From positions 324,843-388,842 of the forward strand of contig CAVQCH010000002.1 of the NCBI GenBank assembly GCA_963710945.1: 64,000 bases of DNA, written 5' to 3'. Below the pieces are notes generated by a model, which made no database searches, had not been told where the DNA came from, and saw nothing but the letters and a program-made list of their open reading frames with translations. This document shows positions 1-64,000 of the stretch, in pieces. This DNA comes from an uncultured Acidobacteriota bacterium. Lineage in GTDB: Bacteria; Acidobacteriota; Thermoanaerobaculia; UBA5066; Gp7-AA6. Position 1 is the first letter of the stretch, and every line of letters starts with the position of its first letter. The translations under genes were made by a program, and so were the position numbers.

Positions 1-267
1 CGAGCGGCGTGCCCGTCGCGATGGCCGCCAAGGGAGCGGTCGCCGCCGCGGTGCCCCCGGCCGTCGTCGGCCTCGCGGCCCTGGGGCTCGCCCGGCGGTG
101 GCCGTGGCCGCCGGCGGGACGGTGGCGGCTGGGCGTGCGGCTGACGGCCGCGCTCGTGGCGCTCGCGGCGGCCTCCGTCCTTCTCTGGCTGGTGATCGTC
201 GAGATCGACGTGCGGGCTGACGCCGGGCGCCCGCCGGCCGACGGCGCCGATCATCGCGTGGCAGTCC

Positions 268-987
268 GTGATCGACTTCCTGCTGCTGCTGTCGCTCGCC
301 GGCGTCGGATACGCGCGGCACACCGCCGAGGCGCTGCAGCAGGCGCGAGAGGACGCCGCGCGGGCGGAGGCGCTGCGGGCGCGGGCCGAGCTGCAGCTGC
401 TGCGCTCGCAGGTCCATCCCCACTTCATCCTCAACGTCCTGCACGCGCTGCTCGGCCTCGTGCGCCGCGACCCGGCGCTCGCCGAGAGCGCGCTCGAGCG
501 GCTGGGCGAGCTGTTGCGCTTCGGGCAGGAGGTCCACCAGTCCGGGTCGGACTGGGTGCCGCTCTCGCGCGAGTGGGACTTCGTCGCCAGCTACGTCGCG
601 CTCGAAAAGCTGCGCCTGGGCGGGCGCCTGGCGGCCTCGATCGAGGCCGACGCCGGCGCGCTCGCGACGCCCGTGCCGCCTTTCGCGCTCCAGCCCCTGG
701 TCGAGAACGCGATCGTCCACGGCGTGGCGCCCCGGGCTTCCGGCGGCCGCGTCGAAATCCGGGCGCGGCGCGACGGCGCCGGCGTGCGGCTCTCGGTGAG
801 CGACGACGGCCCCGGCGCCCGCGAGGCCGACGTCCTCGCGAGCCCGCGCCACGGGCTTCGCCTGCTGCGCGAGCGCCTCGCGGCTCTCTACGACGGGCGC
901 GCGCGGATGCGCTTCGAGACGCCGTCGGGCGGGGGATTCGCGATCCACCTGGAGCTGCCGGACGACGCGGCCGGAGACCGGTCGTGA
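268..987 (+). CDS. LytS-family sensor histidine kinase (His_kinase + HATPase_c core). The N-terminal transmembrane part is encoded in another frame upstream (from position 9 or earlier to about 250), implying a +1 frameshift or error near 240-260
   Basis: Motifs LRSQVHPHFILNVL (H-box) and LVENAIVHG...GFAIHLELP (ATPase); TM-like AAKGAVAAAVPPAVVGLAALG...LLWLVIV in the frame starting at 9; GTGA overlap with the downstream LytTR regulator. Confidence 0.7.
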   Translation: MIDFLLLLSLAGVGYARHTAEALQQAREDAARAEALRARAELQLLRSQVHPHFILNVLHALLGLVRRDPALAESALERLGELLRFGQEVHQSGSDWVPLSREWDFVASYVALEKLRLGGRLAASIEADAGALATPVPPFALQPLVENAIVHGVAPRASGGRVEIRARRDGAGVRLSVSDDGPGAREADVLASPRHGLRLLRERLAALYDGRARMRFETPSGGGFAIHLELPDDAAGDRS

Positions 988-1727
988 GCGCGGGGCGCGC
1001 GCGGACCCTGATCGCGGAGGACGAGGCCCCCGCGCGCGAGACGCTGCGCGAGCACCTGGCCGCGGACCGGCGCATCGAGATCGTCGCCGAGGCAGTCGAC
1101 GGCCGTTCGGCGCTCGCGCTCGCCGATGCGCACGCGCCCGACCTGATCTTTCTCGACGTGCGCCTGCCGGAGCTCTCCGGCCTCGAGGTCGCGCGCCGCA
1201 TCCGGCATCCGGCGGAGATCGTCTTCACGACGGCATACGACCGGTTCGCCGTCGCGGCGTTCGAGCTCGGCGCCATCGACTACCTCGTCAAGCCGTTCGG
1301 GCGCGATCGCCTGGCGGCCGCCGTCGAGCGCGCGCTCGGCCGGCTCGGCCAGGCCTCGGTCGGGGCGGGAGACCGGGCGCGCGATTCGCTGGCCGAGGGG
1401 CCGCTCGCCCGGCTCTTCGCCCGGCACGGCGACCGCATCGTGCCGATCGCCGCGGAGGGGATCCGGCGGATCCAGGCGCAGGGCGACTACGCGGAGGTGC
1501 ACGCCGCGGAGGGCGTCTTCCTGATCCACGTGACGCTGCAGGAGCTGGCCGCGCGGCTCGATCCGGCGCGGTTCCGGCAGGTGCATCGCTCGCACATCGT
1601 GTGCCTCGACGCGATTGCGCACATGAGGCCGCACGACGACCGGCGTCTGGCGATCACGTTGAAGGACGGCGCCGTCGTCGTCGCCAGCCGGACCGCCTCG
1701 GAGGAGCTCCGCCGCCTCGCGCGCTAG
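984..1727 (+). CDS. LytTR-family response regulator (REC + LytTR DNA-binding domain)
   Basis: LIAEDEAPARETL...DLIFLDVRLPELSGLEVARRI (receiver); C-terminal LytTR motifs (IRRIQAQGDYAEVHAAEGVFLIHVTLQELAARL). Confidence 0.8.
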   Translation: MSAGRARTLIAEDEAPARETLREHLAADRRIEIVAEAVDGRSALALADAHAPDLIFLDVRLPELSGLEVARRIRHPAEIVFTTAYDRFAVAAFELGAIDYLVKPFGRDRLAAAVERALGRLGQASVGAGDRARDSLAEGPLARLFARHGDRIVPIAAEGIRRIQAQGDYAEVHAAEGVFLIHVTLQELAARLDPARFRQVHRSHIVCLDAIAHMRPHDDRRLAITLKDGAVVVASRTASEELRRLAR

Positions 1728-1744
1728 GTGACAGTTCTCAACAG

Positions 1745-2425
1745 TCAGGCCGACGCCGCTTCGCGGGCGGCGCCGAGGGCGTTGATGTCGGTCGTCTCGA
1801 GGATCTTCTTCGGATAGCCCTGTGCCGCGAGCCGGATCATGGCCCGGCCGAGGACCTCCGTCGTCGTGACGAGGCCGGGAAGCACCCGGCGCAGCAGCGG
1901 ATAGAGAGGGGCGAAGACGGCGTAGAAGAGCCGGTAGACGGCGGTCTTCGACTGGTAGCCCCGCAGCGGCTGGATGAAGCCGGGTCGCAGCATGTACGCG
2001 GCGGCGAAGGGCAGGTGGAGCAGCGCGTTCTCCGTCTCGCCCTTGACGCGCGCCCACATCATCCGGCCGCGCTCGTTGGTGCCCGCGCCGGACACGTAGC
2101 AGAACGTCATGCCGGCGCTGGCCGCGACGAGGGCGCGCGCGGCGGCGAGCGTGAGGTCGTACGTCAGGCGGCGATATTTCGCCTCGTCCATGCCCGCCGA
2201 CGACACGCCGAGGCAGAAGAAGCAGGCGTCGCGATCGGCGAACTGCGACAGGACGGAGGCGTAGTCGAAGAAATCGCGGTGAAGGCGCTCCTCGAGCTTC
2301 GGGTGCGCGACGCCGCACGGGCTGCGCCCGATGGCGAGCACGGAGGTGACGCGCGGGTCCGCGAGGCATTCGTGCAGGACGCCGGCGCCCACCATGCCTG
2401 TCGCGCCGAAGAGAACCACCTTCAC
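1745..2425 (-). CDS. NAD(P)H-binding epimerase/dehydratase-like protein (SDR superfamily)
   Basis: N-terminal Rossmann motif MKVVLFGATGMVGAGVL. Confidence 0.65.
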   Translation of the reverse strand: MKVVLFGATGMVGAGVLHECLADPRVTSVLAIGRSPCGVAHPKLEERLHRDFFDYASVLSQFADRDACFFCLGVSSAGMDEAKYRRLTYDLTLAAARALVAASAGMTFCYVSGAGTNERGRMMWARVKGETENALLHLPFAAAYMLRPGFIQPLRGYQSKTAVYRLFYAVFAPLYPLLRRVLPGLVTTTEVLGRAMIRLAAQGYPKKILETTDINALGAAREAASA

Positions 2426-2432
2426 GGGGCCG

Positions 2433-3066: not shown

Positions 3067-3571
3067 CTAGACTTTTTCGTCCGCGGTGGGACCGTAGATC
3101 GAGGGCAGGGGAACGTCGTTCTCCCGCAGGTAGACCGTCAGCTGCCCGCGGTGATGGATCAGGTGGTTGAGCAGGATCCGCCGCAGGAGCGCCTTGCGCT
3201 TGTGCTTGAAGAAGACCTCGCCGTCCGGGCGCAGAACGGTGAACTCCTGCGTGCATCTCCTCGTCGGTCTTCCGGGCGATGGCGGCGCGGCTGCCGGCGA
3301 CGTTCTCGTCGAACCGGGCCATGAACTCGGCCGCGGTCTTCATCGGAGGCGCCTTTTCGGATCCGGCCTGGAAGCGCTCGGCCTCGAACCGCAGACCCCA
3401 GCGGGGCAGCTCGGTGACGTGCGTGGCCAGGGCGCCGAGGCTCATGGACTTCGCGTGCGGCTTCCAGTCGAGCCGGTCGGCGGGCACCCGCTCGAGCACG
3501 CGGCGCGTCGTGGCCATTTCGGCGTCGAACTCGGGGAGGAACGATTCGGCAATCGTGCTCATGAGAGTCAT
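3067..3571 (-). pseudogene. DinB/YfiT-family (DinB_2) protein. The reading frame is broken by a single extra base near 3247; the C-terminus ...VLRPDGEVFFKHKRKALLRRILLNHLIHHRGQLTVYLRENDVPLPSIYGPTADEKV is in the +1 frame
   Basis: N-terminal part MTLMSTIAESFLPEFDAEMATTRRVLERVPADRLDWKPH...; the hallmark HHRGQL motif is recovered only after shifting frame, ending at TAG (complement of 3067-3069). Confidence 0.6.
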
Positions 3572-10401: not shown

Positions 10402-10455
10402 GAGGGAGGATTCGAGGAACCTTCGGCCCTCTCGTTCGTATTCGCTGGAAGGAAC

Positions 10456-12909
10456 ATGGGCGGACTCCGGCAGGACCTTCGACATGCCGCGCGGGGGCTG
10501 GCGAGAAACCCCGGCGTTTCCGCGATCATGGTCGTGACGCTCGCCCTGGGCATCGGGGCGACCACGGCGATTTTCAGCGTGGTGCACGGCGTGCTGCTGC
10601 GGCCGCTGCCGTACCCCGACGCGAAGCGGATCATGGCCGTCTTCGAGGTCACCTCGAAGGGCAGACCGTCGCGCGTCGCGGACCCGAACTTCGACGACTT
10701 CCGGGATCAAAACCAGCAGCTTCCAGGCGATGGCGAAGTACACCAGCGTCGTGGCTTCCGTCTCGGGAGCTGCGTCGCCGACGCGCACGACGGTGGCGTA
10801 CGTCTCGCCCGACTTCGTCCGCGTCCTCGGCGTGCCGCCGATCCTCGGGCGGGACTTCGGCGCCGCCGACGCGAGAAAAGGAGCCGGACCGACCGTCCTC
10901 GTCAGCCAGGGATACTGGAAGCAGCATCTCGGATCGCCGCCGGATCTTTCCCGGGCGCACCTGAAGATCGACGGTGCCGTCTACTCCGTGATCGGCGTGC
11001 TTCCGGCGGGGTTCCGGTTCCCCGCGGACGCGGACCTCTGGGTGCCGGCCGATCTGGACGGCGAGAACCCGAGCCGGACGTCGCATAACTACAGCGCGGT
11101 CGGGCGCCTGCGGGACGGGGTGACCGTCGCGCAGGCGAACCGGGACATCAGCGCGATCGCGCGCCGCATCCACGATGCCTCGAGCGAGAAGGGCGACTAT
11201 CTCCTCGCGGACGCGATGGTCGTCCGGCTCCAGGACTCCATCACCGGCCCGGCTCGCGGCGCGCTTCTGGTGCTGCTCGGCGCGGTCGGGTTCCTGTTGC
11301 TCGTGGCCTGCGCGAACGTGGCGAACCTGCTGCTGGCGCAGGCGTCGGGCAGGCAGCGTGAGCTCGCCATTCGCAGCGCTCTCGGCGCGGCGCGCGGCCG
11401 GCTGATCCGGCAGTTCCTCACCGAGGCATTCCTGCTGTCTCTGATCGGCGGCGGCCTCGGCCTGCTGGGGGCGCTCGGGGGCGTGGCCGGACTGCTGGCG
11501 CTCGCGCCCGCGAGCCTGCCGCGGCTCGACAGCGTCGCGATCAGCCTTCCCGTCCTCGTGTTCGCGTTGCTCCTGTCGACCGCGGTCGCCGCCGGCCTCG
11601 GAGCGTTCACCGCGGTGCGAGCCACCTCCGGCGGCCCGCGCCAGGGCCTCGTCGAGGGCGGGCGGGGACAGGCGGGATCGCCGGGAAGCCAGCGCCTCGG
11701 CCGTTTCATCGTGGCCGCGCAGATCGCGATCACGCTGGTTCTCGTGATCGGAGCGGGCTTGCTCGGGCGCAGCCTGATGAAGGTGCTCGAGGTGAATCCG
11801 GGTTTCCGCGTGGACAGGATCGTCACGATGGACGTTTCGCTTCCCGTGGGTGGACGACGCGAAGGCGAAGGCGGGCCAGGCGGCCTTCTACTCCCGCCTC
11901 ATCGACCGCCTCGCGCAGATCCCGGGCGTGAGCAAGGTCGGCGCGACGAGCGGCCTGCCGATGGACGGCGGCCTTCCCGACGGGATGTTCCTGCTGATGG
12001 CGCCGGAAGAGGCGCCGAAAGACGTGGGGGAGCTCGCCCCGCTGCTCCAAGCAGAAGGAGCGTATCGGCAACGCGGACTTCTGCGCCGCCACGGACGGGT
12101 ACTTCCGGGCCCTTGGAATTCCGTTGATGCGAGGGCGGCTGTTCGACGGACGCGACGGCGCCGATTCTCCGCACGTTGCCGTCATCAGCGAATCGCTCGC
12201 ACGCGATCGGTGGCCGGATCGGGATCCGATCGGCCGCACGATCGAGTTTGGAAACATGGATGGCGATCTGCGTCTCCTCACGATCGTCGGGATCGTGGGC
12301 GACACCCACGAATACGGCCTCGACGCGCCGCCGCGCCCGACCGTCTACGTGAACCTGTTCCAGCGGCCGCGCTCGGCGGTCACCCTGACGATGCTGAGCG
12401 ACGCCGACACGCGCCAGGTCACTTCGGCGGCGCGGGGAATCCTGCAGGACCTCGATCCCGAGCTGCCGGCGAGGTTCCGGACGTTTTCGCAGGTCTACGC
12501 CGCGTCGCTCGGCTCCCGGCGGTTCAACGTCATCCTCGTCGGGTTCTTCGGGATCACGGCCCTGCTGCTCGCCACCGGAGGCGTGTTCGGCGTGATGGCC
12601 TATTCAGTCAGCCGCCGCACGCGCGAGATAGGCGTTCGCGTCGCCCTCGGTGCGCGCTCCCGGGACGTGCTGCGACTGGTGCTCGGTCAGGGCTTGCGCA
12701 CGATCTTCGTCGGCGTGGCGATCGGGATTGCCGGGTCGCTCGCCCTGACGCGCGCCGTGGCGTCGCAGCTCTTCGGCGTGACGGCCACCGATCCGGTGAC
12801 GTTCGGCGCGGTGACGGTCCTCCTCGTCGGGGCGGCGCTGCTCGCCTGTTACGTCCCAGCGCGGCGGGCCACGAGGGTCGACCCGATGGTCGCGCTGCGG
12901 GCCGACTAG
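10456..12909 (+). pseudogene. ABC-transporter permease of the FtsX/MacB-like 'ADOP' family, interrupted by three +1 frameshifts (about 10718, 11848, 12050)
   Basis: Family N-terminus MGGLRQDLRHAARGLARNPGVSAIMVVTLALGIGATTAIFSVVHGVLLRPLPYPD; the middle (...YVSPDFVRVLGVPPILGRDFG...VTMDVSLPV / DDAKAKAGQAAFYSRLIDRLAQIPGV) and C-terminal FtsX domain (...GVMAYSVSRRTREIGVRVALGARSRDVLRLVLG...DPMVALRAD) are in three different frames; no ABC ATPase gene is adjacent. Confidence 0.7.
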
Positions 12910-12912
12910 CTT

Positions 12913-13584
12913 TCAGAACCGATAGATCACCCCGAGGCGGAAGTCTGCCTGCTGGATGACGTGGCTGGTGTCCCGGGAGTTGCACGTGTAGGTGACGAAG
13001 TCCCAGTAGCAGCCGCCGGGGCCGGCCGAGAACAGGTAAACGGGCGCCCAGCGTGCCTCCAGGCGCAGCCCGACGTGCTCGGAGAAGTACGCCCGCACGC
13101 CGCCGGCGATGCTGAAGGTGAACTTCGTCGTCGCGGGCAGCTCGTTGGACGGTACGAGGACGGTGAAGCCGAGGCCCAGGCCGAGGTACGGGCGAACCGG
13201 CCGGCCCGGGGGGACGAAGTTGGCGAGGATGCCGAACGTGACGTCGTGAATCCCCATGTCGTAGGTGCGCTGCGCGGGGTTCGCGTCCGCGGCGAGCGCG
13301 GTCGCCGGAGAGTCCGTGTAGCCGTACTGGATCTCGAGATCGCCGAACCGGTCGATGCCCCAGTCGACGGCCATGCCGAACGTCGCCGCGTTGACGAGAT
13401 CGAGGATTGGCGAGTCGGGGGCGGCCTTCGTCGAAATGCTGCCCTCGATTCGATAGCCGGCGAGCAGCGTCGCCTCGAAGCGGCCCGGCCGGAAAGGCGC
13501 CGCCGGGTCCTGAGCTTCTGCGGCCGCAACCGCTAGAGCCGCGGCGCCAAAACCCGCGAGCAGCCGCGTCCCTCGCCGCGACAT
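12913..13584 (-). CDS. outer-membrane beta-barrel protein (OmpA-like porin fold) with signal peptide
   Basis: MSRRGTRLLAGFGAAALAVAAAEAQ signal; alternating hydrophobic beta-strand pattern; C-terminal aromatic residue (…GVIYRF); GGAGGTG Shine-Dalgarno upstream. Confidence 0.65.
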   Translation of the reverse strand: MSRRGTRLLAGFGAAALAVAAAEAQDPAAPFRPGRFEATLLAGYRIEGSISTKAAPDSPILDLVNAATFGMAVDWGIDRFGDLEIQYGYTDSPATALAADANPAQRTYDMGIHDVTFGILANFVPPGRPVRPYLGLGLGFTVLVPSNELPATTKFTFSIAGGVRAYFSEHVGLRLEARWAPVYLFSAGPGGCYWDFVTYTCNSRDTSHVIQQADFRLGVIYRF

Positions 13585-16765: not shown

Positions 16766-17893
16766 CTATCGCGCGCCGAGGCGGGCGATCGCGAAGCGCA
16801 GCAGGGGCGACCCCGCCATTCGCGCGGCGACGGCGGCGGCCGAGGGCTGGAGCATGAACCGTCGGAACACCGAGCCCCAGCCGAACGGCCGGGAGAAGCG
16901 CTCGCGCCAGGCCCGCGTGTAGACGCGGGCGACGTCGTTCATGGAAATCCGCCCGTCGAGGCCCCGGATCAGGATCTCCGCCGCCAGGATTCCCGACCCC
17001 AGCGCTCCCGCCTGACCTTCGCCGGAAAAGGGATCGATGACGCCCGCGGCGTCGCCGACCATGAGCATCCGGTTTTCGACCGGCGGCTTCACGGTGAAGA
17101 ACACGGGACCGATCCCGAGGAATCCGCCCGGCCCCTCCCGCAGGTTCGCCATCGCCGCGTCCAACGCCGCGCTCGAGCGGCGGGCATGGGCGACCACGAC
17201 ATCCCATCCGCTGCCGAGCCTCCGGCGCGTTCGTTCGGAAATGACGCCCGCCAGATTCGTCACTCCGTTCTCGACCCGGGAAAGCCCGCAGTAGCCGCCC
17301 GGGAAGAGGAAGAGATGAACGTGGCCGGCGAGCCGTTCGCCGCCGGCGAAATCCCGGCTCCAGCCGAAGAATCGCGAGCCGCCGGCGAGAAATCGGCGCT
17401 TGAGCCTGCGATCGAGAGCGTCCCATCGCCCCCACGCGCCGATGACGCAGCGGGCTTCGAGAGTGTGTTCGCTCCCGTCGGACAGGAACCGGACGCGGAA
17501 CTCGGAGCCGGTGCCCCGGTCGATCGACGTCACGCGAGCGCCGTATCGGACCTCCGCTCCAAGCGCGGCGGCGCGCCGCGCGAGCAGCGTGTCGAGGCGC
17601 GAGCGGGAAACGCCGAGGCCGGCGGCGGGCAACTCGAAAGCGACCGAGCGGCCGCGGGGAAGATGCAGGAAGCCTCGTTCGATGTGTTCCGCGCCGGCTT
17701 CGATGTCGGCAAGGACGCCCAGGCGCCGCAGATCCGGCCTCGCCCTGCCGGAAAGAAATTCGCCGCAGACCTTGGCGCGCGGAAAGCGGTCCTTCTCCAG
17801 GACGATCGCGCGACGCCCCGCCGCGGCGAGGGTCGCCGCCGCCGCGGATCCGGCGGGCCCGGCGCCGACGATCAGGGCATCGCAAGCGCTCAT
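16766..17893 (-). CDS. FAD-dependent oxidoreductase/monooxygenase (geranylgeranyl-reductase-like fold)
   Basis: N-terminal DALIVGAGPAGSAAAATLAAAGRRAIVLEK (GxGxxG FAD motif); ATGA start/stop overlap with the upstream methyltransferase. Confidence 0.8.
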   Translation of the reverse strand: MSACDALIVGAGPAGSAAAATLAAAGRRAIVLEKDRFPRAKVCGEFLSGRARPDLRRLGVLADIEAGAEHIERGFLHLPRGRSVAFELPAAGLGVSRSRLDTLLARRAAALGAEVRYGARVTSIDRGTGSEFRVRFLSDGSEHTLEARCVIGAWGRWDALDRRLKRRFLAGGSRFFGWSRDFAGGERLAGHVHLFLFPGGYCGLSRVENGVTNLAGVISERTRRRLGSGWDVVVAHARRSSAALDAAMANLREGPGGFLGIGPVFFTVKPPVENRMLMVGDAAGVIDPFSGEGQAGALGSGILAAEILIRGLDGRISMNDVARVYTRAWRERFSRPFGWGSVFRRFMLQPSAAAVAARMAGSPLLRFAIARLGAR

Positions 17894-18589
17894 GCGTCGG
17901 CGGTGATCAGAAGGCCGTAAGGGAACACGCGCCTCGTGCGGGCGGTCGGGGCGACGGCCCCGGCGATCGCCTGCGCCTCCGCCGCCGTGTAGGCCTGCCG
18001 CACGGAGGCGACACCATCGAGCACCGAGACTCGGCTTCGAAAGAGCGCGCGCCCTGCCACCGCGATGGCGGCGAGCGGGATCCGGTGCCGGCGCAGATCG
18101 AGGATGGCGAAGCCGACCCGCGCGACGCGCAGGAGCTCGGCGAGGATCGACCGGTTCTCGTCGGGAGAGAAGTGGTGAAAGAACAGCGTCGAGACGGCAA
18201 AGTCGAAGGCTCGATCGGGAAACGGAAGGCGGAAGACGTCCGCGGCGACGAGTCCCACGGGGTGCGGGGCCCGGGACGTTCGCCCCGCCGCCAGGTGCCT
18301 CCACTGGACGTCGAGCGCGGTCACGCGGACCTCTCCCGCGGCGTCGCGAGAGGGATGCGCGGAGCCGGCGCGTGACCGAGGCGGAACCGGCGCCGACGTC
18401 CAGGATCGAGGCCGGCCGGCCGGGGACCCGGAGTCGAGGCGCCAGGTGGCGCACGAGCGCCCGCGACCCGCCCCAGTGCCGATGAACGAAGTCGAGATCC
18501 GCGAGCGAGAGCCGCATCTCCGCGTCGGGAAGCGACGGATCGTCCAGGAGCTCGCCCGAGGGGCGCCGGGGAGGCACGAGGAGACTCAC
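17890..18589 (-). CDS. class I SAM-dependent methyltransferase (apparent single frameshift near 18330)
   Basis: SAM motif I ILDVGAGSASVTRRL in one frame; motifs ...FDFAVSTLFFHHFSPDEN...LAELLRVARVGFAILDL in the adjacent frame. Confidence 0.7.
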
Positions 18590-19682: not shown

Positions 19683-19685
19683 GCG

Positions 19686-23258: not shown

Positions 23259-24342
23259 CTAATTCGTCAGGGAGATTTCGACGGTCTCGCTCTTGCCGGG
23301 TCCCACGACCACCGTGCGCTCCTCGGTCTTCATGCCGGGCCGGGAGACGGTGACCGAGTGCTGCCCCGGCGGGACCTGCATGCCCCTGGCCAGGGTCGAA
23401 AGCTCCTGCCCGGACCCCACGAAAGTGTCGTTCAGGTAAACGGCCGCGTCGCCCGGCTGAATCAGGAAGAGGATGCGGGCTCTCGTTTTCGGCACCGTGC
23501 CGGCGCCCGGAGGCGGCGCCTGGACCTGAACCTCATCACCGTAGGGCGCAGGCTGGTCGCGGTCGCGCCAGGACTGGTACTGGCCCTGGGCCCAATCGCC
23601 CTGGTCCTCGACCGCCTGGACGTCCGCGGACGGGTACGTCGAAACGTAGCCCGACGTGTCGTAGCCGCTCCACCAACCTGGCGACCCCCAACCCCAACCC
23701 CAACCCCAGTCTGCCCAACCGAGGCCCCAGCCCCATCCCCATCCCGGGTAGTAGTAGTAGCCGCCGCCGTAGTAGGGGTTGTATCCGTGTCCGTAGTAAC
23801 CGTGGCCACCGTAGTAACCGTGACCACCGTGATAGCCGCCGCCACCGTGATAGCCGCCGCCGCTGCCACCGTGATAGCCGCCGCCGCTGCCACCGTGGTA
23901 GCCGCCACCGCTGCCACCGTGATAGCCGCCGCCGCTGCCACCGTGATAGCCGCCGCCGCTGCCACCGTGATAGCCGCCGCCGCTGCCACCGTGGTAGCCG
24001 CCACCGCTGCCACCGTGATAGCCGCCGCCGCCACCACCGTGGTAGCCGCCACCGCTGCCACCGCTGATAGCCGCCGCCGCCGCTGCCACCTCGATAGCCG
24101 CCACCGGCACCGGGATAGCTGCCGCCACCGCCGCCGTGAGATCCGCTGCTGCCACCACCGTGATAACCGCCACCGCCGCCGTGGGATCCACCGCCACCGC
24201 CGCCACCGTGGGATCCGCCGCCACCACCGTGAGACCCACCGCCCGAATGTTGGCCGGGCGCCGCGGTCGCCAAACCAAAGGCCAGCGCGCCCGCGAGAAG
24301 GAGCGGTTGAACCTTCGAGCCAGCCCTCAAAAACTTGTTCAT
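23259..24342 (-). CDS. secreted Gly/Tyr/His-rich repeat protein with GW repeats and C-terminal PEGA domain (one +1 frameshift inside the repeat array near 24075)
   Basis: Signal peptide MNKFLRAGSKVQPLLLAGALAFGLATAAPG; (GGSGGGYH)n then GYYGGHGYYGHGYNPYYGGGYYYYPGWGWGWGLGWADWGWGWGWGSPGWW; C-terminal PEGA-like ...ILFLIQPGDAAVYLNDTFVGSG...PPGQHSVTVSRPGMKTEERTVVVGPGKSETVEISL. Confidence 0.7.
23800..24240 (-). repeat. imperfect 24-bp tandem repeat array (about 18 units) encoding GGSGGGYH / GGGSHGG
   Basis: Unit ccaccgtgatagccgccgccgctg repeated head-to-tail with minor variants. Confidence 0.85.
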
Positions 24343-37530: not shown

Positions 37531-37749
37531 ATGCCTTCGCTGGCGGACCGATGCGGGGTCTGTGACCAGGAGCTTCCCTTCGCGCTGCCCCATTGCCCCA
37601 GCTGCAAGAAGACGGTCTGCGAGACCTGCGCGTTCCGGATGGGCGGGAGCGTCTTTTGCGGGTCGGCGTGCGCCAACGCCTTCTTCTTCGGCGGCCAGGA
37701 GGACGTCGAGGACGAATCCGATCTTCGCCTGCTCGATGACGAGGAATGA
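37531..37749 (+). CDS. small Cys-rich zinc-ribbon-like protein (72 aa)
   Basis: CGVCDQ...CPSCKKTVCETCAF...CGSAC: four CxxC-like pairs; acidic C-terminal tail; ATGA overlap with the start of the ClC gene. Confidence 0.5.
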   Translation: MPSLADRCGVCDQELPFALPHCPSCKKTVCETCAFRMGGSVFCGSACANAFFFGGQEDVEDESDLRLLDDEE

Positions 37750-41392: not shown

Positions 41393-41695
41393 ATGAAGAA
41401 AGCACTGGCTCTCGGGATGGTGCTCGTGTTCTGCGCCGCCGTCGGGCTCGCGCACGGCAAGGCGACGGAGGCCACGATCACGAAGGTCGACATGGCCGGC
41501 AAGTCGATGGTCGTCAAGACCGCCGACGGCAAGGAGATGACGATCTACTGGAACGACGCGACGAAGGTCGAGGGGACGCCAAGGAAGGCGAGATGGTCCA
41601 CGTCAAGACGTCCGAGAAGGACGGCAAGACCTGGGCGAGCTGGGTCCACGTCGGGAAGATGGCGCCGAAGTCCTCGGCGCAGCCCAAGTCCTAGT
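41393..41695 (+). CDS. small periplasmic hypothetical protein (one frameshift near 41580)
   Basis: GGAGTGGGG Shine-Dalgarno, signal peptide MKKALALGMVLVFCAAVGLAHG; C-terminal ...KEGEMVHVKTSEKDGKTWASWVHVGKMAPK in the +1 frame. Confidence 0.45.
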
Positions 41696-41796: not shown

Positions 41797-42232
41797 ATGC
41801 CAGGCAGTGGGCGGGCTCTTGCGGCGGCGATCCTCGGGGCTTCGGCACTGGTGGCAATGCTCGCGGCCCGAACCGCGCCGGCGCCGCCCGAGCCCGATTC
41901 CGCCGCGATCGAGCGCGGCCGCTACATCACGCACGATCTCGCCATGTGCGTCCAATGCCACTCGCCGCGCGACGAGAAAGGGAGAGATCCGCAGGTCCCG
42001 GGAATTCTCCGGCGCGCCGATCCCCGTCCAGTCTCCCTTTCCCGGCCCGCCGTGGGCCGTGCGCGCGCCGAACATCCGCGGACTCGAGGGCTTCTCGGAC
42101 GAGACGATCCTGCACTTCCTTCAAACCGGGATCGCGCACACGGGGGTTCCACCGCAGTCCCCGATGCCACCGTTTCGCATGACGCCCGAGGATGCCCGCG
42201 CCGTCGTCGCCTATCTCCGGTCGCTCCGGTAG
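41797..42232 (+). CDS. mono-heme c-type cytochrome (one frameshift near 41985)
   Basis: Signal peptide, heme-binding CVQCHS; the conserved C-terminus ...TILHFLQTGIAHTGVPPQSPMPPFRMTPEDARAVVAYLRSL is in another frame. Confidence 0.6.
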
Positions 42233-42955: not shown

Positions 42956-43847
42956 ATGCGCCGTCGCAGGCTTCTTGGAATCGCGACCGGGATCTTCCTG
43001 GCCGTCGGGAGCGCATCGGCGCAGACGGCGCCGCAGCCGGTGGTGCACGGCGGCGCGCCGTCGGTCTCGCCGGACGGCACGAAGATCGCGTTTCTGTCGG
43101 AGCGCGACGGCGCGACCGACGTATACGTCATCGGGGCGGACGGCACGGGAGAAACGCGCCTGACGCACGCGCCCGAGGTCGAGGGCCAGCCCGGCTGGTC
43201 GGCCGACGGCAAGGAGATCTGGTTCTCGGTCTTCGCCAACGATGCGAGCCGCATCTACGCGATCGGCCTGGACGGCAAGAATCAGAAGCTGCTGGGCACC
43301 GTTCCGGGTCGCGCGATGAGGGTGTCTCCCGACGGGACGAGGATCCTTTACTGGACCGGTTCGTGGACGGCCATGCGCATGTTCGTCTCGAGCCTGGACG
43401 GCTCCGGCGCCCGACAGCTCACCGACGGGAGCGGCGTGGTGTGGGGCGCGCGGTGGTCTCCGGACGGGAAGCGAATCGCTTTCGCCGACAAGGACGCGAA
43501 GGGCGACTTGCACGTCTTCGTGATCGAGGCCGACGGGTCGGGCCGCCGGCAGGCGACGCGGCTCGAGGCCTCGGACCTGCGCGAGCAGATGCCCGCGTGG
43601 TCGCCGGACGGCGCGAAGCTCGCCGTGCAGGCGGCAAGGGCAAAGGAGCCCGCGCACATCTGGATCGTGGACCTGTCGACCGGAGCCGGGCCGCAAGCTC
43701 GCCGCGCACGCCGAGCCCTACGACGACGAGGTTCCCGCCTGGTTCCCCGACGGCAAGCGCATCGCCTTCCAGAGCGACCGGACCGGCCGCTGGGAAATCT
43801 GGGTGATGAACGCCGACGGCTCGGGACAGCGCCAGGTTACGAAGTAG
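42956..43847 (+). CDS. periplasmic WD40-like (PD40/TolB-type) beta-propeller repeat protein (one +1 frameshift near 43690)
   Basis: Signal peptide; repeated ...SPDGTKIAF.., ...SADGKEIWF.., ...SPDGKRIAF.., ...SPDGAKLAV... blades; the last blade ...FPDGKRIAFQSDRTGRWEIWVMNADGSGQRQVTK is in a shifted frame. Confidence 0.7.
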
Positions 43848-43865: not shown

Positions 43866-45120
43866 TCAGAGGTAGCGCAGCCACGGCTCGCTTCGCCGCC
43901 GCTTGAGCTCGCCCATCCAGCGGCACGGCACGTAGAGGATCGCCACCACAGCGAGCGTGACGAAGTACAGCAGGGGAAGGCTCCACGCGTACCCTTCGGG
44001 CGGCGGCGGGTTGCCCATCGGGTGGTTCGCGAAGAGCCAGGCGTTCACCCGCCCTTCGCGCACGAGCGAGACCGCGATCGCCGCCAGATGGATGAGCGGG
44101 ATGTGCAGGACGTAGAAGAAGAACGGGACGCGACCGAAAACCATCAGGGCACTGGCCAGACGGCCGTGCGCCGTCTCGAGCAGCGGAATCGACGCGATCA
44201 TCGGGCCGAGCGTCATGAGCAGGAAAAGCAGCGACGCGGGGTACTTGTTCGTGTTCAGGAATCGCAGGAGCGCGGGCATCGGCGGCCCGGCGGTCCCGGC
44301 GCTGGCGTCAGCGCCGCCATCGGGCGGCGGGTTCCACTTGCCGGGATCCCCGTATAGATCGAAGCCGCGGAGCGCGAGAAAGAGGGCGATCGCACCGCCG
44401 CCGATCGCGAGACACCAGCGGCGCCGTCGCGCGGTGTCCATGCGCATGATCGGGCCGAAGGCGTATCCCACCGCCATCACGCCGATCCAGGGGATGAGCG
44501 AATAGAGCACGGTAAGCCGCATGCCGAACACGTCGATGGGCCCGCTGGCGAAGCCGAAGTACAGGATCTTCCAGAGCCCGGCCAGGCTGCGCGTCGTTCA
44601 GGGTGCCGGCGAGCTGCCAGAACCGTCCGTCCATCAGATCGTGGCCGGCGATGATCGCCACGCCCAGCGCGCCAACGGCGGCGATCGGCAGGTACACGAG
44701 GCCCGCCATGAGGATCATGCACCAGCCGATGACCCAGATCACGCCCGCCAGGGCGTAGTGCGAGTAGTCGAAGTTGAAGGTCCATCCGAAGCGGATGAAC
44801 GTCATCTCCATGAGGATGAGCCAGGCGCCCCGCACGATCAGGAAGCGGGCGAGGGGTCCGCGCCCGGCGCGGCCGCCGAGCTTGCCGCCGTAGAGGAAGA
44901 TCGCCGTGCCCGCCAGGAAGACGAAGGCGGGGGCGCAGAAGTGGGTGACCCAGCGCGTGAAGAAGACGGCCGGGGTCCGCCCGCCGGCGGCGACGCCCGA
45001 GAACACGCGAACGTGGTCGAGCGCCATCAGCACCATGACCGCCCCCCGGATGATGTCGAGCGACGGGATGCGGGCGCGATCGAGCCCGGACGAGCCGTCG
45101 GTCTGGCGAATGGGCGGCAC
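43866..45120 (-). CDS. DUF1624 / HGSNAT-like acyltransferase-family membrane protein (one frameshift near 44550)
   Basis: N-terminal motif LDIIRGAVMVLMALDHVR; the two halves (44308-45120 and 43866-44531 ORFs) are contiguous and complementary. Confidence 0.6.
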
Positions 45121-45247
45121 GGTGGCCTCCTCGGTGCCGGGATGCTACCTCTCCGCGGCCGGGCCCGTGTCAGGCATCTGATGCACCTGCATCATTTCGC
45201 CGGGCGAAATCCGCGCCATCGTGGAATGAGCGACGAGGAGGGGCGAA

Positions 45248-47657: not shown

Positions 47658-49149
47658 TCAGTTCTCCGCGTCCGGCGCGGGAAGAGGCGCCGGAGCGCGG
47701 GGAAGGATCACGCGGAACAGGTTGCCGCGCGGCGCCCGCGGTTCCGCCACCACGCTTCCCCCGTGTAGTCCCGCCGCCCACTGAACGATGGCGAGGCCGA
47801 GGCCGCTGCCGTCCGCCGAGCCGCTGCGCGCCGATGCCGTGCGGTAGAAGCGCTCGAAGACGCGGTCGCGGTCCTGCGCGGATAGCGTTTCGGCCTCGTC
47901 GAGAAAAGCGAGCTCGAGGCAGTCGGGCCGGCCACCGACACGCACCTCGATGCGCGCCCCCGGCGGAGAGAACTTGACGGCGTTTTCCAGCAGGTTGGTC
48001 GCGATCCGGCGCAGGAGGCGCTCGTCGCCCCGGTACTCGGCCGAGCCGGCGGAAACGACCGACACCGCGATCTCGCGACCGGCCGAGATGGGCCGCAGCG
48101 ATTGGACGACCTCCTGGACGAGCTCGTCGAGGTCCACCAGGCGGCGCTCCACGGGCTGTTCGAGGACCTGGCCTTCCGCGAGCAGCGTCAGGTCGCTGAC
48201 CAGGCGCGACAGCCGCTCGCTCTGTGCGGCGATCGCGCGGAGGGCCTCGCGCAACTCCTCGACACTGCGGCTTCCCGACAGCGAGAGCTCGGCCTCCGTC
48301 CGAACGATCGCCACCGGCGTCTTCAGCTCGTGCGCCGCGTCGGCGATGAAAGAGCGCATCTGGCTCGCGGAGGCGTCGATCTTCTCGAGCAGCCGATTGA
48401 ACGTCTCGCCGAGGCGGCTCAATTCGTCCCCGGAAGGGGAGACGGCGAGGCGGTGCGGCTCGCCGGTAGGCGGCATGGACGCCATGCTGTCTGCCTGGAA
48501 GTTGAGGGCCGCGATGGGCCGCAGCGTCCGGGTCGCCAGCCAGTAGCCTCCGGCCAGGGCGAGGCCCAGTCCGGCGAGCCCGAGCTCCAGGAGCGCGCGG
48601 CGAAACGAGCCGAGCGCGTCTTCCAGCGGGGTCATGTCGCCGACGACCGCGATGCTCAGGACGTCCGGCTCCCGGGCTGGCCGGAAGCTCCGGACGGCGG
48701 CGCGGTGGAGAGGATCCGAGGGAAGGATGGACGTCGAGGTCGAACGAGACAGGGTCGACCAGCGTGCGGCGTCGAAGGCGGCCCTGTCCGCCGGCAGCCC
48801 GGCGCCGGGGATGCGCGCGAGCAGCGTCGCCGCGTCGGGCCCGCTGCGGATCTCGGCGTACATGCCGCTCAGGCGAAACTCCTCGAGCGTCGTGACGGCA
48901 GCCCGCTGCAGGGGCGAGGAAGGCGGAGGCCGCGCCGTCGTCTCCGTCCGCTCCGCGTCGGGCCTCGTCGAGCTCCTCTTTGAAGGCGTTCTCGAGGGTG
49001 CTCAGGTTCGCCACGAGATCCGTGTCGAAAGCGGCGTACGCCGTGGTGCGGTAGCGCACGTAGGACGCCGCGGCAAAGACGACGAGGACGACGCCGAGGA
49101 CGGCGCCATACCAGGCCGTGAGCTTCCAGCGGATGGGGAGCCCGTTCAG
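47658..49149 (-). CDS. sensor histidine kinase, partner of the OmpR-family regulator (one frameshift near 48900; non-canonical start)
   Basis: TM1 LPIRWKLTAWYGAVLGVVLVVFAAASYV, HAMP, H-box ...ADAAHELKTPVAIV..., HATPase ...LENAVKFSPPGARIEV...GSGLGLAIVQ. Confidence 0.7.
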
Positions 49150-49841
49150 GGCGGCACCTGGCGGAGGTCCGGAACGAAGTAGCCCTCGCCGCGGCGCGTC
49201 GTGAGGAAGGAATCGCGCCGCTCCGGGGAGAGCGGGTCGAGTTTTTGCCGCAGGCGCCCGATGTAGACGTCGATGAGGTTCGACATCGGGTCGTATCTCT
49301 CGTCCCACACGTGCTCCGCGATCTCGTGCCGCGACACGGTGCGTCCCCGGTTGAGGAGAAGGTACTCGAGCAGCGAGTACTCCTTGGCCGTGAGCTCGAC
49401 ATCGGTGCCGTTGACGTTGACCGCGCGCCGGGCCCGGTCGAGCCGGATGCTGCCGACGGTCAGGGTGATCTGCTGCGGCAGGGCGCGGCGGCGCAGCAGC
49501 GCGCCGACGCGAGCCCGAAGCTCGTCCGCGGCGAAAGGCTTGGCCAGGTAGTCGTCCGCCCCGAGCTCCAGGCCCCGGACCCGATCTGCGATCTCCGAGC
49601 GCGCCGAGAGCATGAGGATAGGCGTCGAGATCCCCGCGGCGCGCAGGTGGCGGCAGACCGTGAAGCCGTCCATCCCCGGCAGAAGGATGTCGAGGATCAG
49701 CAGGTCGTACTTTCCGGTCACGCCGCGATCCACGGCGGCGGCGCCTTCGCCCACGACGTCGACGGCGTAACCGGACTCCCGGAGGACCCGGCAGAGGAGG
49801 CTCGCCATGTGCAGATCGTCTTCGACGGCCAGGATCCGCAT
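49146..49841 (-). CDS. OmpR/PhoB-family response regulator
   Basis: MRILAVEDDLHMASLL...DLLILDILLPGMDGF...; winged-helix C-terminus ...LTAKEYSLLEYLLLNRGRTVSRHEI... Confidence 0.85.
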   Translation of the reverse strand: MRILAVEDDLHMASLLCRVLRESGYAVDVVGEGAAAVDRGVTGKYDLLILDILLPGMDGFTVCRHLRAAGISTPILMLSARSEIADRVRGLELGADDYLAKPFAADELRARVGALLRRRALPQQITLTVGSIRLDRARRAVNVNGTDVELTAKEYSLLEYLLLNRGRTVSRHEIAEHVWDERYDPMSNLIDVYIGRLRQKLDPLSPERRDSFLTTRRGEGYFVPDLRQVPP

Positions 49842-57394: not shown

Positions 57395-58782
57395 CTACTT
57401 CCGCGCCGCGGTGCGCGTCTCCTTCTGAGTCACGATACGAGCGCCTCGACGCTCTCGCGGAACACCGCGCGTGTGCCGGTCGATGTCGGCCTCGGTGGTG
57501 TCGGGGCAGATGAGCGCCATGTTGTGGAAGGGCGTCATCAGGATGCCGCGGTTGAGCGCGGCGAGGTGCATGTAGCGGTCGAGGTCGGGATCGACCGCGG
57601 CGGCCGCCTCGGCGCCGTTGTTCGGCGGCGTCGCGCGGAACCAGTACTCGGCCCGGCAGCCGAGCTGCGTGACGTGCCAGGGGAGCCGGTGCTCGGCGAT
57701 CACGCCCTCGACTCCCTCGGCGAAGCGGCGTGCCAGCGGGATCGTGCGCGCGTACGCCTCCTCGGTCAGGACGTGCTCGAGCGTCGCGCGCATCGCGGCG
57801 AGCGAGAGGGCGTTGCCGGCGAGCGTGCCGCCGATGCCGCCCGTGTCCGCCGTCCTCGATCGTCGTCGCGGCGCGGATGCGATCGGCCACCTCCGCCGAC
57901 AGCCCGTAGACGGCCGCGGGGACGCCGCCGGCGATCGGCTTTCCGATCGTGAGGATGTCGGGCGACAGGCCGTGCGCGCGCGTGTAGCCGCCCGGGCCGG
58001 CGCGAGATCGTGTGCGTCTCGTCGATGATGAGAAGCGTCCCCGTGCGCCGCGTGATCTCGCGCAGGGCCTCGTGGAAGCCGGGCTGCGGGATGCACGATC
58101 CCGATGTTCGTCATGACCGGCTCGGCCAGCACGCAGGCGACGTCGCCGTGGGCCAGCGCCTCCTCGAGCGCCGGCGACGTCGTTGAACTCGACGACCCGG
58201 GTCGTCTCGGCGGGATCGACCGGCGGTCCGAGATTGCCGCTGCGCGGACCGGCGGCGCCGTTCCTCAGGGTGATGAACGTCTCGTCCACGGTGCCGTGGT
58301 AGCACCAGTTGAAGACCAGGATCTTCGGCCGCCGTGACGTGGCGCGCGAGGCGGATGGCGAAGCGGTTGGCGTCGGTCGCCGTCAGCGTGGTCTGCCAGT
58401 AGGGCAGGCCGAAGCGCCGCGCGAGCTCTTCGCCGACCCAGATGGCATCCTCGGTCGGCAGCATGAAGGTGATGCCGCGCCGCGCCTGCGCCGCGATCGC
58501 CGCGACCGAGGCCGCGGGCGCGTGGCCCGTCATGGCGCCGGTGTCGCCGAGGCAGAGGTCGAGATAGCGGTGGCCGTCCACGTCGGTGAAGTGGGCGCCG
58601 GACGCTTCCTGGACGAAGATCGGGAAGCTGCCGGCCCAGCGCACCATCCAGTTCATGGGCACGCCGCCGAGCAGGCTCTGCTGCGCGCGCTCGAAGAGGG
58701 CCCGCGAGCGGGGATGCGCGGTGGTGAACCGCTCCTGTTCTTTCGTGAGGAGGCCGGAGAGCCGGTCTCGATCTATAGTCAT
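57395..58782 (-). pseudogene. class-III (PLP-dependent, GSA-aminomutase-like) aminotransferase broken by five or more frameshifts
   Basis: Fragments ...GAHFTDVDGHRYLDLCLGDTGAMTGHAP..., ...DETFITLRNG..., ...LAEPVMTNIGIV..., ...HGLSPDILTIGKPIAGGVPAAVYG... (PLP-lysine region) and a C-terminal third lie in at least four frames. Confidence 0.65.
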
Positions 58783-58875: not shown

Positions 58876-60900
58876 ATGCGTCCCGTCAAATCTCTGCTTT
58901 GCCTGCTCCTTGCCTCCGTGCCTGCCCTCGCCCAGGAGAGCGCCCAGAAGGGGATCGAGCTCTCCGACATGGACCGCAACGTCGAGGCGTGCTCGGACTT
59001 CTTCGAGTTCGCCAACGGGGCCTGGCGGCAGATGAATCCCATCCCGGCCTCGATGGTGCGATGGAGCCGCCGCTGGCAGGCCGGCGAGGAAGCCAAGGAC
59101 CGGCTCAAGGGGATCCTCGACGAGGCTGCCGCCGTCAAGAATCCGCTGAAGGGGAGCATCGACCAGCTGATCGGCGATTTCTACGGCTCCTGCATGAACG
59201 CCGACGAGTTGAACCGGCTCGGCGTCAAACCGCTCGACCCGCTGCTCGCGCAGATCGCCGCCATGAAGAGCACGGCCGACGTCGCTCGCATGATCACCCG
59301 GTTCCAGCAGATCGCCATTCCCGTTCCGTTCGGCATCGGGGCCGGCTCGGACAATCACAACCCGACGGACGTGCTTGCCCAGATCTACGCGAGCGGGCTC
59401 GGCCTGCCGGATCGGGACTACTACTTAAAGTCGGAGCCGCGCTTCCAGGAGGCGCGCGAGAAGTACGTCGCGCACATCGCGAAGGTGTTCCGGCTCGCGG
59501 GGTCGGCCGAGGCGGAAGCGAAGGCGGCCGCCTCGACCGTGATGCGGATGGAGACGCAGCTGGCCGAGGCGTCGCTCGACAACGTCGCCCTGCGCGACCC
59601 GAAGGCCACCGACCATAAGACGTCCATGGCCGACCTCCAGAAGATGACGCCCCGCTTCGACTGGACGGCATCGTTCCAGGCGCTCGCCATCAAGCCCGGC
59701 GACGTGAACGTGGCCGAGCCCCGCTTCCTCTCGGCGGTCAACATTCAGCTCGGATCGATCCCGCTCGCCGACTGGAAGACGTACCTCAAGTGGCACCTGC
59801 TCGACTCGGCCGCCCCGTCGCTCTCGGACGCCTTCGTCGAGGAGGACTTCGCCTTCAACGGCGCGTACCTGAACGGCGCGAAGGAGCTCAAGCCGCGCTG
59901 GAAGCGCTGCGCGGAGTCGACCGACAACCTCCTCGGCGAGGCGCTCGGCAGGAAATACGTCGAGAAGTACTTCCCGCCGGAGGCCAAGGCGCGGATGCAG
60001 GAGCTCGTCAAGAACCTGCTGCTCGCGATGGGCCAGACGATCGAGGGCCTCGACTGGATGAGCGCCGAGACCAAGAAGCGCGCTCTCGAAAAACTTTCGA
60101 CCTTCAACCCGAAGATCGGCTACCCGGACAAGTGGAAGGACTACACGAAGGTTCCCGTCACGCCGCGCGTCGTACTGGGACGACGTCCTGTCGGGCCGCA
60201 GGTTCAACGTCGAGGACAGCCTCGCGACGATCGGCAAGCCCGTCGACCGCGGACGCTGGGGCATGACGCCGCCGACCTCGAACGCCTACTACAACCCGCT
60301 CCTGAACGAGATCGTGTTCCCGGCCGGCATTCTCCAGCCGCCGGCCTTCAGCATGTCGGCCAACGACGCCGTCAACTACGGAGCGATCGGCGTCGTCATC
60401 GGCCACGAGATCAGCCACGGGTTCGACGACTCGGGTGCCCAGTACGACGCGCAGGGCCGCCTCCAGAACTGGTGGAGCGACGAGGACCTGAAGAAGTTCC
60501 AGGAGAAGACGGCCTGCGTCGTCAACCAGTTCGACCACTACGAGGTCGAGCCCGGCGTGCCGCAGCGCGGCAAGCTGGTGGTGGGGGAGTCGATCGGCGA
60601 CCTCGCCGGCGCCCGGATCGCGTATCGCGCGTTCCAGATCTCGCAGCAGGGAAAGCCCCCGCTCCCGACGATCGACGGCTTCACGCCCGACCAGCAGTTC
60701 TTCATCGCCTGGGGCCAGTTCCGCGGCGACGCCATCCGTCCGGAGGCCGCGCGCACGATGGCCCAGGGGGATCCCCATCCGATCGGAAAGTTCCGCGTGA
60801 TCGGTCCGCTCTCGAACCTGCCCGAGTTCCAGAAGGCCTTCGGCTGCAAGCCCGGCGCCCCGATGGTGCGGGCGGAGGCCGAGCGCTGCGACGTCTGGTA
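58876..60900 (+). CDS. M13-family zinc metallopeptidase (PepO/neprilysin-like), secreted (two frameshifts near 60170 and 60255)
   Basis: Signal peptide MRPVKSLLCLLLASVPALAQ; Peptidase_M13_N region; HExxH in VIGHEISHGFDD and ...GESIGDLAG... in the C-terminal ORF. Confidence 0.75.
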
Positions 60901-61140
60901 AACACGTCGCCTACGCTTGCGAGGGATCTGCGCCCTTCGGGCGCACCGGTCCGCGGCTCGCCCGGGATGCCGGCTCGACCGCGGACCTGATCCCTTGCTG
61001 CGCTGCGGCTCCCGCGGCGTGAGCCTCCACCCTCGCTTCGCTCGGGTGACTTCTCACGCCGCGAGCTGTTGCCCGAGTGCCGCTGATACGGGCTCCCTCT
61101 CCCGTCGGGAGAGGGAAGGGGTGAGGGGTGCAATCGACTC

Positions 61141-62385: not shown

Positions 62386-62462
<77 letters not shown>

Positions 62463-62490: not shown

Positions 62491-62541
62491 CACCTTTTCG
62501 CGCGACCTCGCGCCCGGAATTGCAACGAGTTAGGAAACGGG

Positions 62542-63324
62542 TTAGGCCCCAGTCTTCGCGATCTTCTCGGCGAGCCGCCTCTTCGCGGCATTGATCTGCG
62601 CTCGCTCTCGATCCTCATGCGCGTAGACGTGCGCCATGCGCTCTGAGATCCCGAGCACGGCTGCCACGGCGCCGAAATCGTGCCCGCCGGTCGCTTCGAG
62701 CTCCTCCGTCGCGAACGTATGGCGCAGATCGTGGAATTTATGATGCGGGAAGACCTTACCTTCCTTTTTCGCCGCCCTTTTCGCGGCCTTCACGGCCGAG
62801 CGCCAGAGCGATTCGAGACGATCCCTGCGGTTCGAGCCGAGTTCCGCGAAGACGGGGCCGATCCCGCGAGGGCCGAGCACGTCGAGACAGTCGAGCCCGA
62901 CGAAACGGTCGCCGCTTCCCTTCTGGGTCGCCGTCCGAAATCCTTTCCCCGGCGCGTACATCGACCAATCCAGGGAAGCGACCTCGTTCATTCGGAGCCC
63001 GGTCGATCGCGCGAAGAGCACGGCCCGGCGAGCGTCCGAGTGTAGCTTCGCGAGGATCGCCTCGAAGACTTCGGCGGGGATCTTCTTTCCGTTCGAGTCG
63101 GACGGTTTCCACGGGGGCATGAGGCGCCGCCGCGTCACCGGATCCCCGGCGACCTTCTCGAAGACGTGCGCCCGGATGAGATCGTGCGCCTTCGCGAGCC
63201 CGAGCGCCCTCCGAAGGAAGGCGAGGTCTTTCGCGACCGTCTTCTTTCCCTCGCGCTCGGCGACGAAACGATCGAGGTGCGCGACAGGTCGAGGCCGAGG
63301 CCGGTCGCCGGCCGTAGCGCACAT
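62542..63324 (-). mobile_element. tyrosine-type site-specific recombinase/integrase, apparently N-terminally truncated or decayed
   Basis: Catalytic-domain motifs ...ARSTGLRMNEV..., HDLRHTFAT, ...MAHVYAHED... (R-H-R-Y); only about 70 aa of core-binding region before it; adjacent to tRNA-Asp. Confidence 0.75.
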
Positions 63325-63570
63325 CGAGGCGCCTGTCGATCGAGTTTCGCTCGATCGACCTGCGCCCCATGAGGAGCGGTCGAGGCCGAATCCTTCTCGA
63401 TCCGTTTGGGGCGCTGTTCGAGTCGATCGCCTTCTCTCTGATCCTTCTCGATCGAGTAGCTTTTCGATCTGTTCTCTTCCGACGTCAGAGCCGGCCCGGT
63501 CGGGCCCGAGCTGTTTTCTAACTCGTTGCCGTTCCTCGTAGGTGCTCGAAATCGCCTGTAAAATGGCCTC

Positions 63571-63582
63571 AGATCATCGGCC
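63571..63582 (+). repeat. 12-bp direct repeat AGATCATCGGCC (right copy)
   Basis: See left copy; together they bracket 1.1 kb containing only the integrase. Confidence 0.5.
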
Positions 63583-63828
63583 TAAAGAGCCGATGCTCTG
63601 CTCTTCGGGCCCTTCGAGGGCCGCGGGCGGCATCCTTTTTTTCGGGGCCTTTCGATTCGATCGAGCCGTCGAAAATCGGGGGCCCTTTTCCTTCGATCGA
63701 GGCCCACGCCTTTGCGAGCCGAGTGGGCCCCTTTTCGTTGACTCATTGTGAACTTCCTGTAGGTTCGAGTCCTACACGGCTCACCACTCATCACCAAACA
63801 GAATAAAATCCTCGCTACGGTCACCGCG

Positions 63829-64000
63829 TGACTCTCGCAGCCGGGACACGCCTCGGTCCCTACGAGATCCTGTCGCCGCTGGGCGCTGGGGGTATGGGAA
63901 AGGTGTACCGGGCGCGGGACACACGGCTCGCGCGCGAGGTGGCGATCAAGGTCCTCCCCGAGGAGTTGACGCCTGACTCCGAGCGGCTCAAGCGCTTCGA
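63829..64000 (+). CDS. Ser/Thr protein kinase, N-terminal fragment (continues beyond the window)
   Basis: GTG start; [46 protein letters not shown] (glycine loop + VAIK). Confidence 0.8.

Follow-up and report, generated by a model that had tools for sequence, protein, structure and literature searches.

Genes fragmented by frameshifts are documented for long-read assemblies and for metagenome-assembled genomes (MAGs), in which such damage is measured with IDEEL and repaired with proovframe-type correction (PMC9262707). Broken reading frames are also known from neutral decay, as in the pseudogenes of Burkholderia leaf-nodule symbionts, where a subset of genes carries several frameshifts per gene (PMC6054270). 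Changes of reading frame inside a coding sequence likewise occur in phase-variable contingency loci and in programmed frameshifting. Here we describe a stretch of 64,000 nucleotides (nt) from an uncultured Acidobacteriota bacterium (Thermoanaerobaculia; UBA5066; Gp7-AA6), corresponding to positions 324,843 to 388,842 of contig CAVQCH010000002.1 in the assembly GCA_963710945.1. This stretch at its full length is hereafter called the window. It contains 31 single-nucleotide frame changes distributed over 14 genes. These breaks are very probably residual consensus errors of a long-read-type assembly, and the 14 genes would then be intact in the organism.

The window resembles the published long-read and MAG cases in that single-base insertions and deletions (indels) split conserved genes, the removal of one base restores the protein, and the breaks are private, the assemblies of relatives being broken elsewhere. 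However, the published account stresses homopolymers, whereas the sites in the window lie mostly outside runs of at least 4 identical bases. Insertions outnumber deletions by about 5:1, and the events crowd into three patches of less than 1 kb instead of following the homopolymer content. The likeness to decaying genes ends with the number of frameshifts per gene and their restriction to a gene subset. In natural pseudogenes, deletions outnumber insertions, indel sizes vary broadly, nonsense codons occur and constraint is relaxed, and none of these features is seen in the window. Unlike phase-variable loci, the sites have no long simple-sequence tracts, up to seven breaks fall in one gene, and the orthologues are read in a single frame. 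In the gene for a glycine-rich repeat protein, the change is an extra base inside a 24-nt unit and the number of units is unchanged. No conserved slippery context of the kind linked to programmed frameshifting was noticed in the flanks of the sites, on which no formal scan was made.

The G+C content is 65-75% throughout the window. Antisense open reading frames (ORFs) of great length are frequent at 69% G+C. Therefore, ORF lists alone mislead, and a codon model was built from ORFs having the expected high G+C at third codon positions (GC3) and low G+C at second positions (GC2). Frame changes were identified by two independent routes, namely codon-usage Viterbi segmentation in all six frames and frameshift-aware protein-to-DNA alignment against the closest obtainable homologues. 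The latter was supported by continuity of Pfam or PDB matches over the junctions. The homologues of the window genes bear names of Thermoanaerobaculia or Acidobacteriota and are chiefly derived from MAGs or metagenomes. The Viterbi gene map contained numerous same-strand frame switches, and for each of them the stop of the upstream frame and the candidate downstream starts were located. Where a stop and a start lay only a few codons apart, the switch was taken as an ordinary gene boundary, as found for LytS/LytTR, tilS/hpt, PKS (polyketide synthase)/methyltransferase/FAD oxidoreductase, ACP/KAS, TolC/MFP/RND and ArsR/methyltransferase. The remaining switches had no stop close by and no usable start, and were located inside single protein families. 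Refinement against several homologues placed 21 of the events to within a few bases.

In total, 26 insertions and five deletions were found, each of exactly 1 nt. A previous reading of the DNA, made from the sequence only, had reported about 30 single-base frameshifts in a subset of genes; our 31 events fall in the identical list of 14 genes. After removal of the events, no in-frame stop was left in any of the 14 corrected genes, the AstE-like, ClC and ADOP genes included, and full-length proteins were restored. The corrected ClC, ADOP, AstE-like, aminotransferase, PD40, DUF1624, M13 and both kinase proteins aligned with homologues from end to end. The affected genes are as follows (I, 1-nt insertion; D, 1-nt deletion).

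1..987, plus strand: LytS-type histidine kinase (His_kinase and HATPase_c), 5′ end cut by the window; one I at about 216
3091..3562, minus strand: DinB-family protein; one I at about 3250-3253
10456..12909, plus strand: ADOP/MacB-like permease (MacB_PCD and FtsX, twice); three I, at about 10716, 11843 and 12050
17893..18589, minus strand: S-adenosylmethionine (SAM) methyltransferase of a type III PKS operon; one I at about 18343-18349
23259..24342, minus strand: secreted Gly-rich repeat protein with C-terminal PEGA domain; one I at 24064
34328..35388, plus strand: AstE/AspA-type deacylase, hot spot 1; 34803 D, 34900 I, 35010 I, 35164 D, 35235 D
37746..39823, plus strand: ClC chloride channel (CBS, TrkA_C), hot spot 2; seven events, 38143 I, 38394 D, 38540 I, 38570 I, 38703 I, 38719 I, 38795 I
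41393..41694, plus strand: small secreted DUF5666-like protein; one D in the G run 41572-41575
41797..42232, plus strand: cytochrome c; one I at 41983
42956..43847, plus strand: PD40 beta-propeller protein; one I at about 43688
43866..45138, minus strand: DUF1624/HGSNAT_cat membrane protein; one I at about 44592
47660..49157, minus strand: OmpR-partner histidine kinase (HAMP, HisKA, HATPase_c); one I at about 48940-48957
57436..58782, minus strand: class-III aminotransferase, hot spot 3; six I, at 57466, 57852, 58004, 58092, 58173 and 58332
58876..60901, plus strand: M13 zinc peptidase; one I at 60163-60169

The three hot spots carry more than half of the events. In the AstE-like gene, five events (two insertions and three deletions) fall within 432 bp and are the same when derived from each of four homologues, in line with the “four or more” breaks suspected earlier. 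The corrected protein matches AstE_AspA_cat in one stretch (residues 66-258). The ClC gene had been thought to hold six breaks including two deletions. Three homologues with 85-86% identity instead demand identical sets of seven events in 652 bp, only one of which is a deletion, and in a nucleotide alignment with the orthologue at the related locus L001 the indels appear as clean single-column gaps. For the aminotransferase, “five or more” breaks had been proposed, and six insertions in 866 bp were placed concordantly by the homologues P0121, P0122 and P0125. Its corrected product shows a single Aminotran_3 stretch covering residues 48-417.

The corrected genes show no relaxation of constraint. 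Positions that are invariant among homologues were kept in 336 of 337 columns for ClC (30 homologues), 342 of 347 for ADOP (51 homologues), 114 of 117 for the aminotransferase (10 homologues) and 45 of 45 for the AstE-like protein (11 homologues), that is, in 837 of the 846 columns of the four genes together. A gene that had accumulated seven neutral indels should, we infer, also have gathered many substitutions. The ORF pieces downstream of the breaks have a GC3 of 0.88-0.95, like intact genes. The corrected proteins resemble their homologues as closely as the products of intact neighbouring genes do: identities are 86% for the corrected ClC and 85% for ADOP, compared with 95% for the intact EAL gene, 86% for the deaminase and 92% for DUF1254. 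The indel spectrum points in the same direction. Curated bacterial pseudogenes contain 396 deletions (7,421 nt) and 300 insertions (1,340 nt), giving an insertion share of 0.43 (300/696 indels) and mean sizes of 18.7 nt for deletions and 4.5 nt for insertions (PMC6054270). Against this share, 26 insertions among 31 events are strongly in excess (binomial test: P = 3.7e-6). This excess reverses the bacterial deletion bias and therefore opposes natural decay. A comparison with orthologous loci, which the sequence-only reading had proposed, found the breaks of the window absent from the related loci L001, L002, L003, L004 and L083; none of them occurs in these loci or in the protein homologues, all of which read through.

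Similar defects were detected in the relatives themselves. The locus L002 is contig_44817 in ENA, a name in the style of the assembler Flye. It carries frameshift defects of its own (10001-13473; about 1000-1314), among them private +1 insertions, one in its ClC gene at another site than those of the window and two in its EAL gene. Its ClC has been called as a 937-aa (amino acid) fusion, and its DUF1254/DUF1214 protein has an off-frame C-terminus. All these broken sites of L002 are in a single frame in the window; the window's DUF1254/DUF1214 gene has one frame, and the breaks in its alignment belong to L002. Parts of the lengths of the public proteins P0128, P0130 and P0316 align to the off-frame translation of the window, and P0071 is also listed among the public proteins of the lineage with off-frame stretches. 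When a chimeric query joining the AstE-like protein, the aminotransferase and DUF1624 was searched, many of the matches of at least 655 aa were themselves fused by frameshifts. Because public entries hold off-frame stretches, the references found by homology search in this clade can be corrupted.

The events are not randomly distributed along the window. When 31 events were placed uniformly 200,000 times, a cluster of at least seven within 700 bp arose with P = 2e-5. Gaps shorter than 300 nt numbered 16, against 4.1 expected under uniform placement. In each of the three hot spots, the density is close to one event per 100 nt. Outside them, the remaining 13 events follow a Poisson-like pattern (variance/mean 0.9), with a background of about 0.2 per kb. 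These 13 scatter as chance would have it; the clustering is carried by the three hot spots. The sequence-only reading had also argued for a non-random distribution, and the hot spots bear this out, but its appeal to long uninterrupted genes is a weak argument alone: the absence of events from the 6-kb kinase is not significant by itself (P = 0.06 at the overall rate and 0.30 at the background rate). A low-penalty Viterbi pass over the long “intact” genes revealed no hidden compensating pairs of frameshifts. Zero events were likewise obtained for two controls, EAL against L001 (95% identity) and the deaminase against L002 (86%). On a scale of about 10 kb, the density varies from 16 of the 31 events in 34.8-44.6 kb to two in 12.1-34.8 kb and none in 49-57.4 kb. 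Such variation would be expected from depth changes at the scale of read length. Local G+C was considered as a cause of the hot spots and rejected: the 2-kb bins with hot spots have 65-72% G+C, whereas the richest bins (74-75%) hold at most one event.

At the LytS-type kinase, an orthologue with 68% identity on a JGI contig (L083) is in a single frame through the site. The corrected ADOP permease is 85% identical over 814 aa to homologues of 816 aa. For PD40, the alignments of three homologues (295-323 aa) are single stretches, each putting one insertion at 43688. The DUF1624 orthologue in L002 (81% identity) is unbroken at the site, and the Pfam HGSNAT_cat match (residues 23-242) crosses the break. 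Single domain matches also cross the junctions in DinB (Pfam DinB, residues 2-149 of the merged protein, profile positions 1-145, junction 104/105), in the SAM methyltransferase (Methyltransf_25, residues 75-170, junction 94/95) and in cytochrome c (Cytochrom_C and Cytochrome_CBB3, junction 62/63 of the merged protein). The M13 peptidase had been credited with two breaks. It has a single one, because the corrected protein aligns to PDB 9eyg_A in one stretch over residues 25-671 with no gap at the junction; both Pfam M13 domains are complete. In the DUF5666-like gene, the codon-usage frame switches at the GGGG run and the upstream frame runs on as Arg-rich off-frame text. The Pfam DUF5666 match that crosses this junction is weak and sub-threshold (E = 0.002), and the deletion is the least secure of the events.

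The Gly-rich protein consists of about 16 tandem 24-nt units (GGSGGGYH), followed by a Tyr/Trp/Gly-rich stretch and the PEGA domain. Its extra base is visible against its own repeats: one unit reads tatcaGcggtgg, where the others read tatcacggtgg. A 390-bp near-perfect repeat of this gene was assembled through, which is a hint of long reads.

The orthologues of the OmpR-partner kinase in L003 and L004 (58-59% identity) are contiguous, and each puts one break in the sensor region of the window gene. No ATG, GTG or TTG lies near the N-terminus of this kinase (49148-49160, minus strand). A CTG overlapping the TGA stop of the regulator gene (CTGA) is present in the window and in the orthologous loci L003 and L004 (near 10000). 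The conservation of this CTGA points to translational coupling of the kinase or to a CTG start shared by the three loci.

According to the explanation we favor, uncorrected single-base errors, more often extra bases than missing ones, would persist in the consensus with a background rate of about 0.2 per kb. Three patches of 0.4-0.9 kb may have a consensus that was derived from little or poor data or escaped polishing, and the rate would rise in them to about 1 per 100 nt. What the analysis demonstrates is the error spectrum, the intact underlying proteins, the clustering and the similar private breaks in related assemblies. Several points weigh against this explanation. The technical cause, that of the hot spots included, is one that we infer rather than establish, and the closest relatives compared are only about 85% identical in protein. 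Exact matches to the FtsH, type III PKS, OmpR regulator and ACP proteins of the window were absent from the collection searched, and a genome scan with the kinase gave no self-hit, only orthologues with 56-58% identity. Furthermore, only 3 of the 31 events are located within 8 nt of a run of at least 4, where about 5 are expected (16% of random positions). Runs of at least 5 contain none of the 21 sites that were placed precisely, and no frame break was detected at any of the 103 such runs in the window. Thus the earlier description of the breaks as mostly +1 insertions at G/C runs holds for the insertions but not for the runs, although the extra base is often indistinguishable from an adjacent identical base (CC, GGG, CCC). 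The sites are not at long homopolymers and therefore the best-known Nanopore signature is absent. They match neither the classical homopolymer error nor a hot spot of strand slippage. What is thereby excluded is the homopolymer subtype of long-read error, and not such error as a whole. We presume that an insertion-rich, mismatch-poor and homopolymer-independent spectrum fits a low-depth consensus of the PacBio continuous long read (CLR) type, or a lightly polished one, better than classical Nanopore homopolymer error.

GATC was found within 10 nt of 9 of the 21 precise sites, compared with 15% of random positions (P = 0.002, uncorrected). This association is post hoc, arises from about 650 tests on sites that are not independent, and fails correction for multiple testing. 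As an uncorrected lead, it could hint at a methylation-linked basecalling error.

An artefact of another kind would arise if the consensus had been built over co-existing strains, the hot spots representing mixed strain variants or paralogous reads. The relatives stem from metagenomes and MAGs, and the events cluster at the sub-kilobase scale, as such mixing would allow. Several affected genes are members of very large families of paralogues: for ADOP, 7979 of 8000 scored candidates matched at E <= 1e-30, and PD40 proteins have about 201,000 representatives at E <= 0.001. However, strain mixing should bring many substitutions, and only one private change in an invariant column was found in the ClC hot spot. 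Nor are ClC, AstE and the aminotransferase obviously multi-copy. We therefore regard mixing as unlikely. It is still less probable that the hot spots are artefacts while one or a few of the 13 scattered events are real and recent inactivations. Natural inactivation most commonly takes the form of single frameshifts at short runs or repeats, and the 13 events have a Poisson-like scatter. The likeliest candidates would be the deletion at 41572-41575 in a GGGG run and the insertion at 24064 in a tandem repeat. Nevertheless, +1 insertions account for 12 of these 13 events, which is the same unusual spectrum as in the hot spots, none has accompanying damage, and ADOP would need three independent hits despite retaining 342 of its 347 invariant residues.

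That all the breaks are real, with 14 recent pseudogenes in a decaying lineage or an insertion-prone mutator, is barely credible. Nothing speaks for it beyond the presence of the breaks in the sequence and their concentration in a subset of genes. Seven, six and five independent indels occur in single genes whose invariant sites are almost free of substitutions. Nonsense codons and indels of more than 1 nt are absent, and insertions exceed deletions, contrary to the bacterial deletion bias; codon bias is intact, no break is common to relatives, and the same type of defect occurs elsewhere in other public assemblies. Real breaks would imply a very recent burst of clustered +1 insertions, for example by an insertion-prone mutator polymerase acting in patches, to which we give next to no probability. 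If such a burst were true, 14 genes would have been inactivated in a Thermoanaerobaculia population before other decay could build up. The sequence-only reading had left the choice between gene decay and quality troughs in the assembly. Troughs are supported, while decay is strongly opposed by the spectrum, the lack of nonsense codons, the retained constraint and the lack of shared breaks. Residual consensus error of a long-read-type assembly thus remains the explanation that we favor.

Other loci of the window show features of a different nature. At 31184-31619 (minus strand), what remains of an amidohydrolase is its C-terminal part, and the match to the Amidohydro_1 profile (345 positions) is confined to positions 264-342. 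Its N-terminal part was found in no frame upstream, where a YgbA_NO gene lies on the opposite strand. Unlike the genes with 1-nt breaks, this remnant looks like a truly truncated gene. An AHSA1/SRPBCC protein (47197-47607, minus strand) covers only positions 1-86 of a 125-position profile, and about 30 residues seem to be lacking before its C-terminal helix. The missing residues are encoded in no alternative frame, and the shortness of this protein could reflect an in-frame deletion or a natural short variant.

The region 16772-23159 encodes on the minus strand, in this order, a type III polyketide synthase (Chal_sti_synt), the SAM methyltransferase listed above and an FAD_binding_3 oxidoreductase. 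An ACP, a KAS II and a fatty-acid hydroxylase are encoded on the opposite strand. The order of the type III PKS genes may resemble that of the srsABC alkylresorcinol/alkylquinone operon of Streptomyces griseus. Near the end of the window, a tRNA-Asp gene (62386-62462, plus strand) is followed by a recombinase of the Phage_integrase family (62554-63285, minus strand), which is a typical border of an integrated element.

As an artefact, the frameshifts themselves hold no biological novelty. Their consequence lies in the reading of the genome, as about a quarter of the genes in the window would wrongly be annotated as fragments, fusions or pseudogenes. Therefore, analyses of gene content, pseudogenes or selection based on this contig need frame correction or polishing first.

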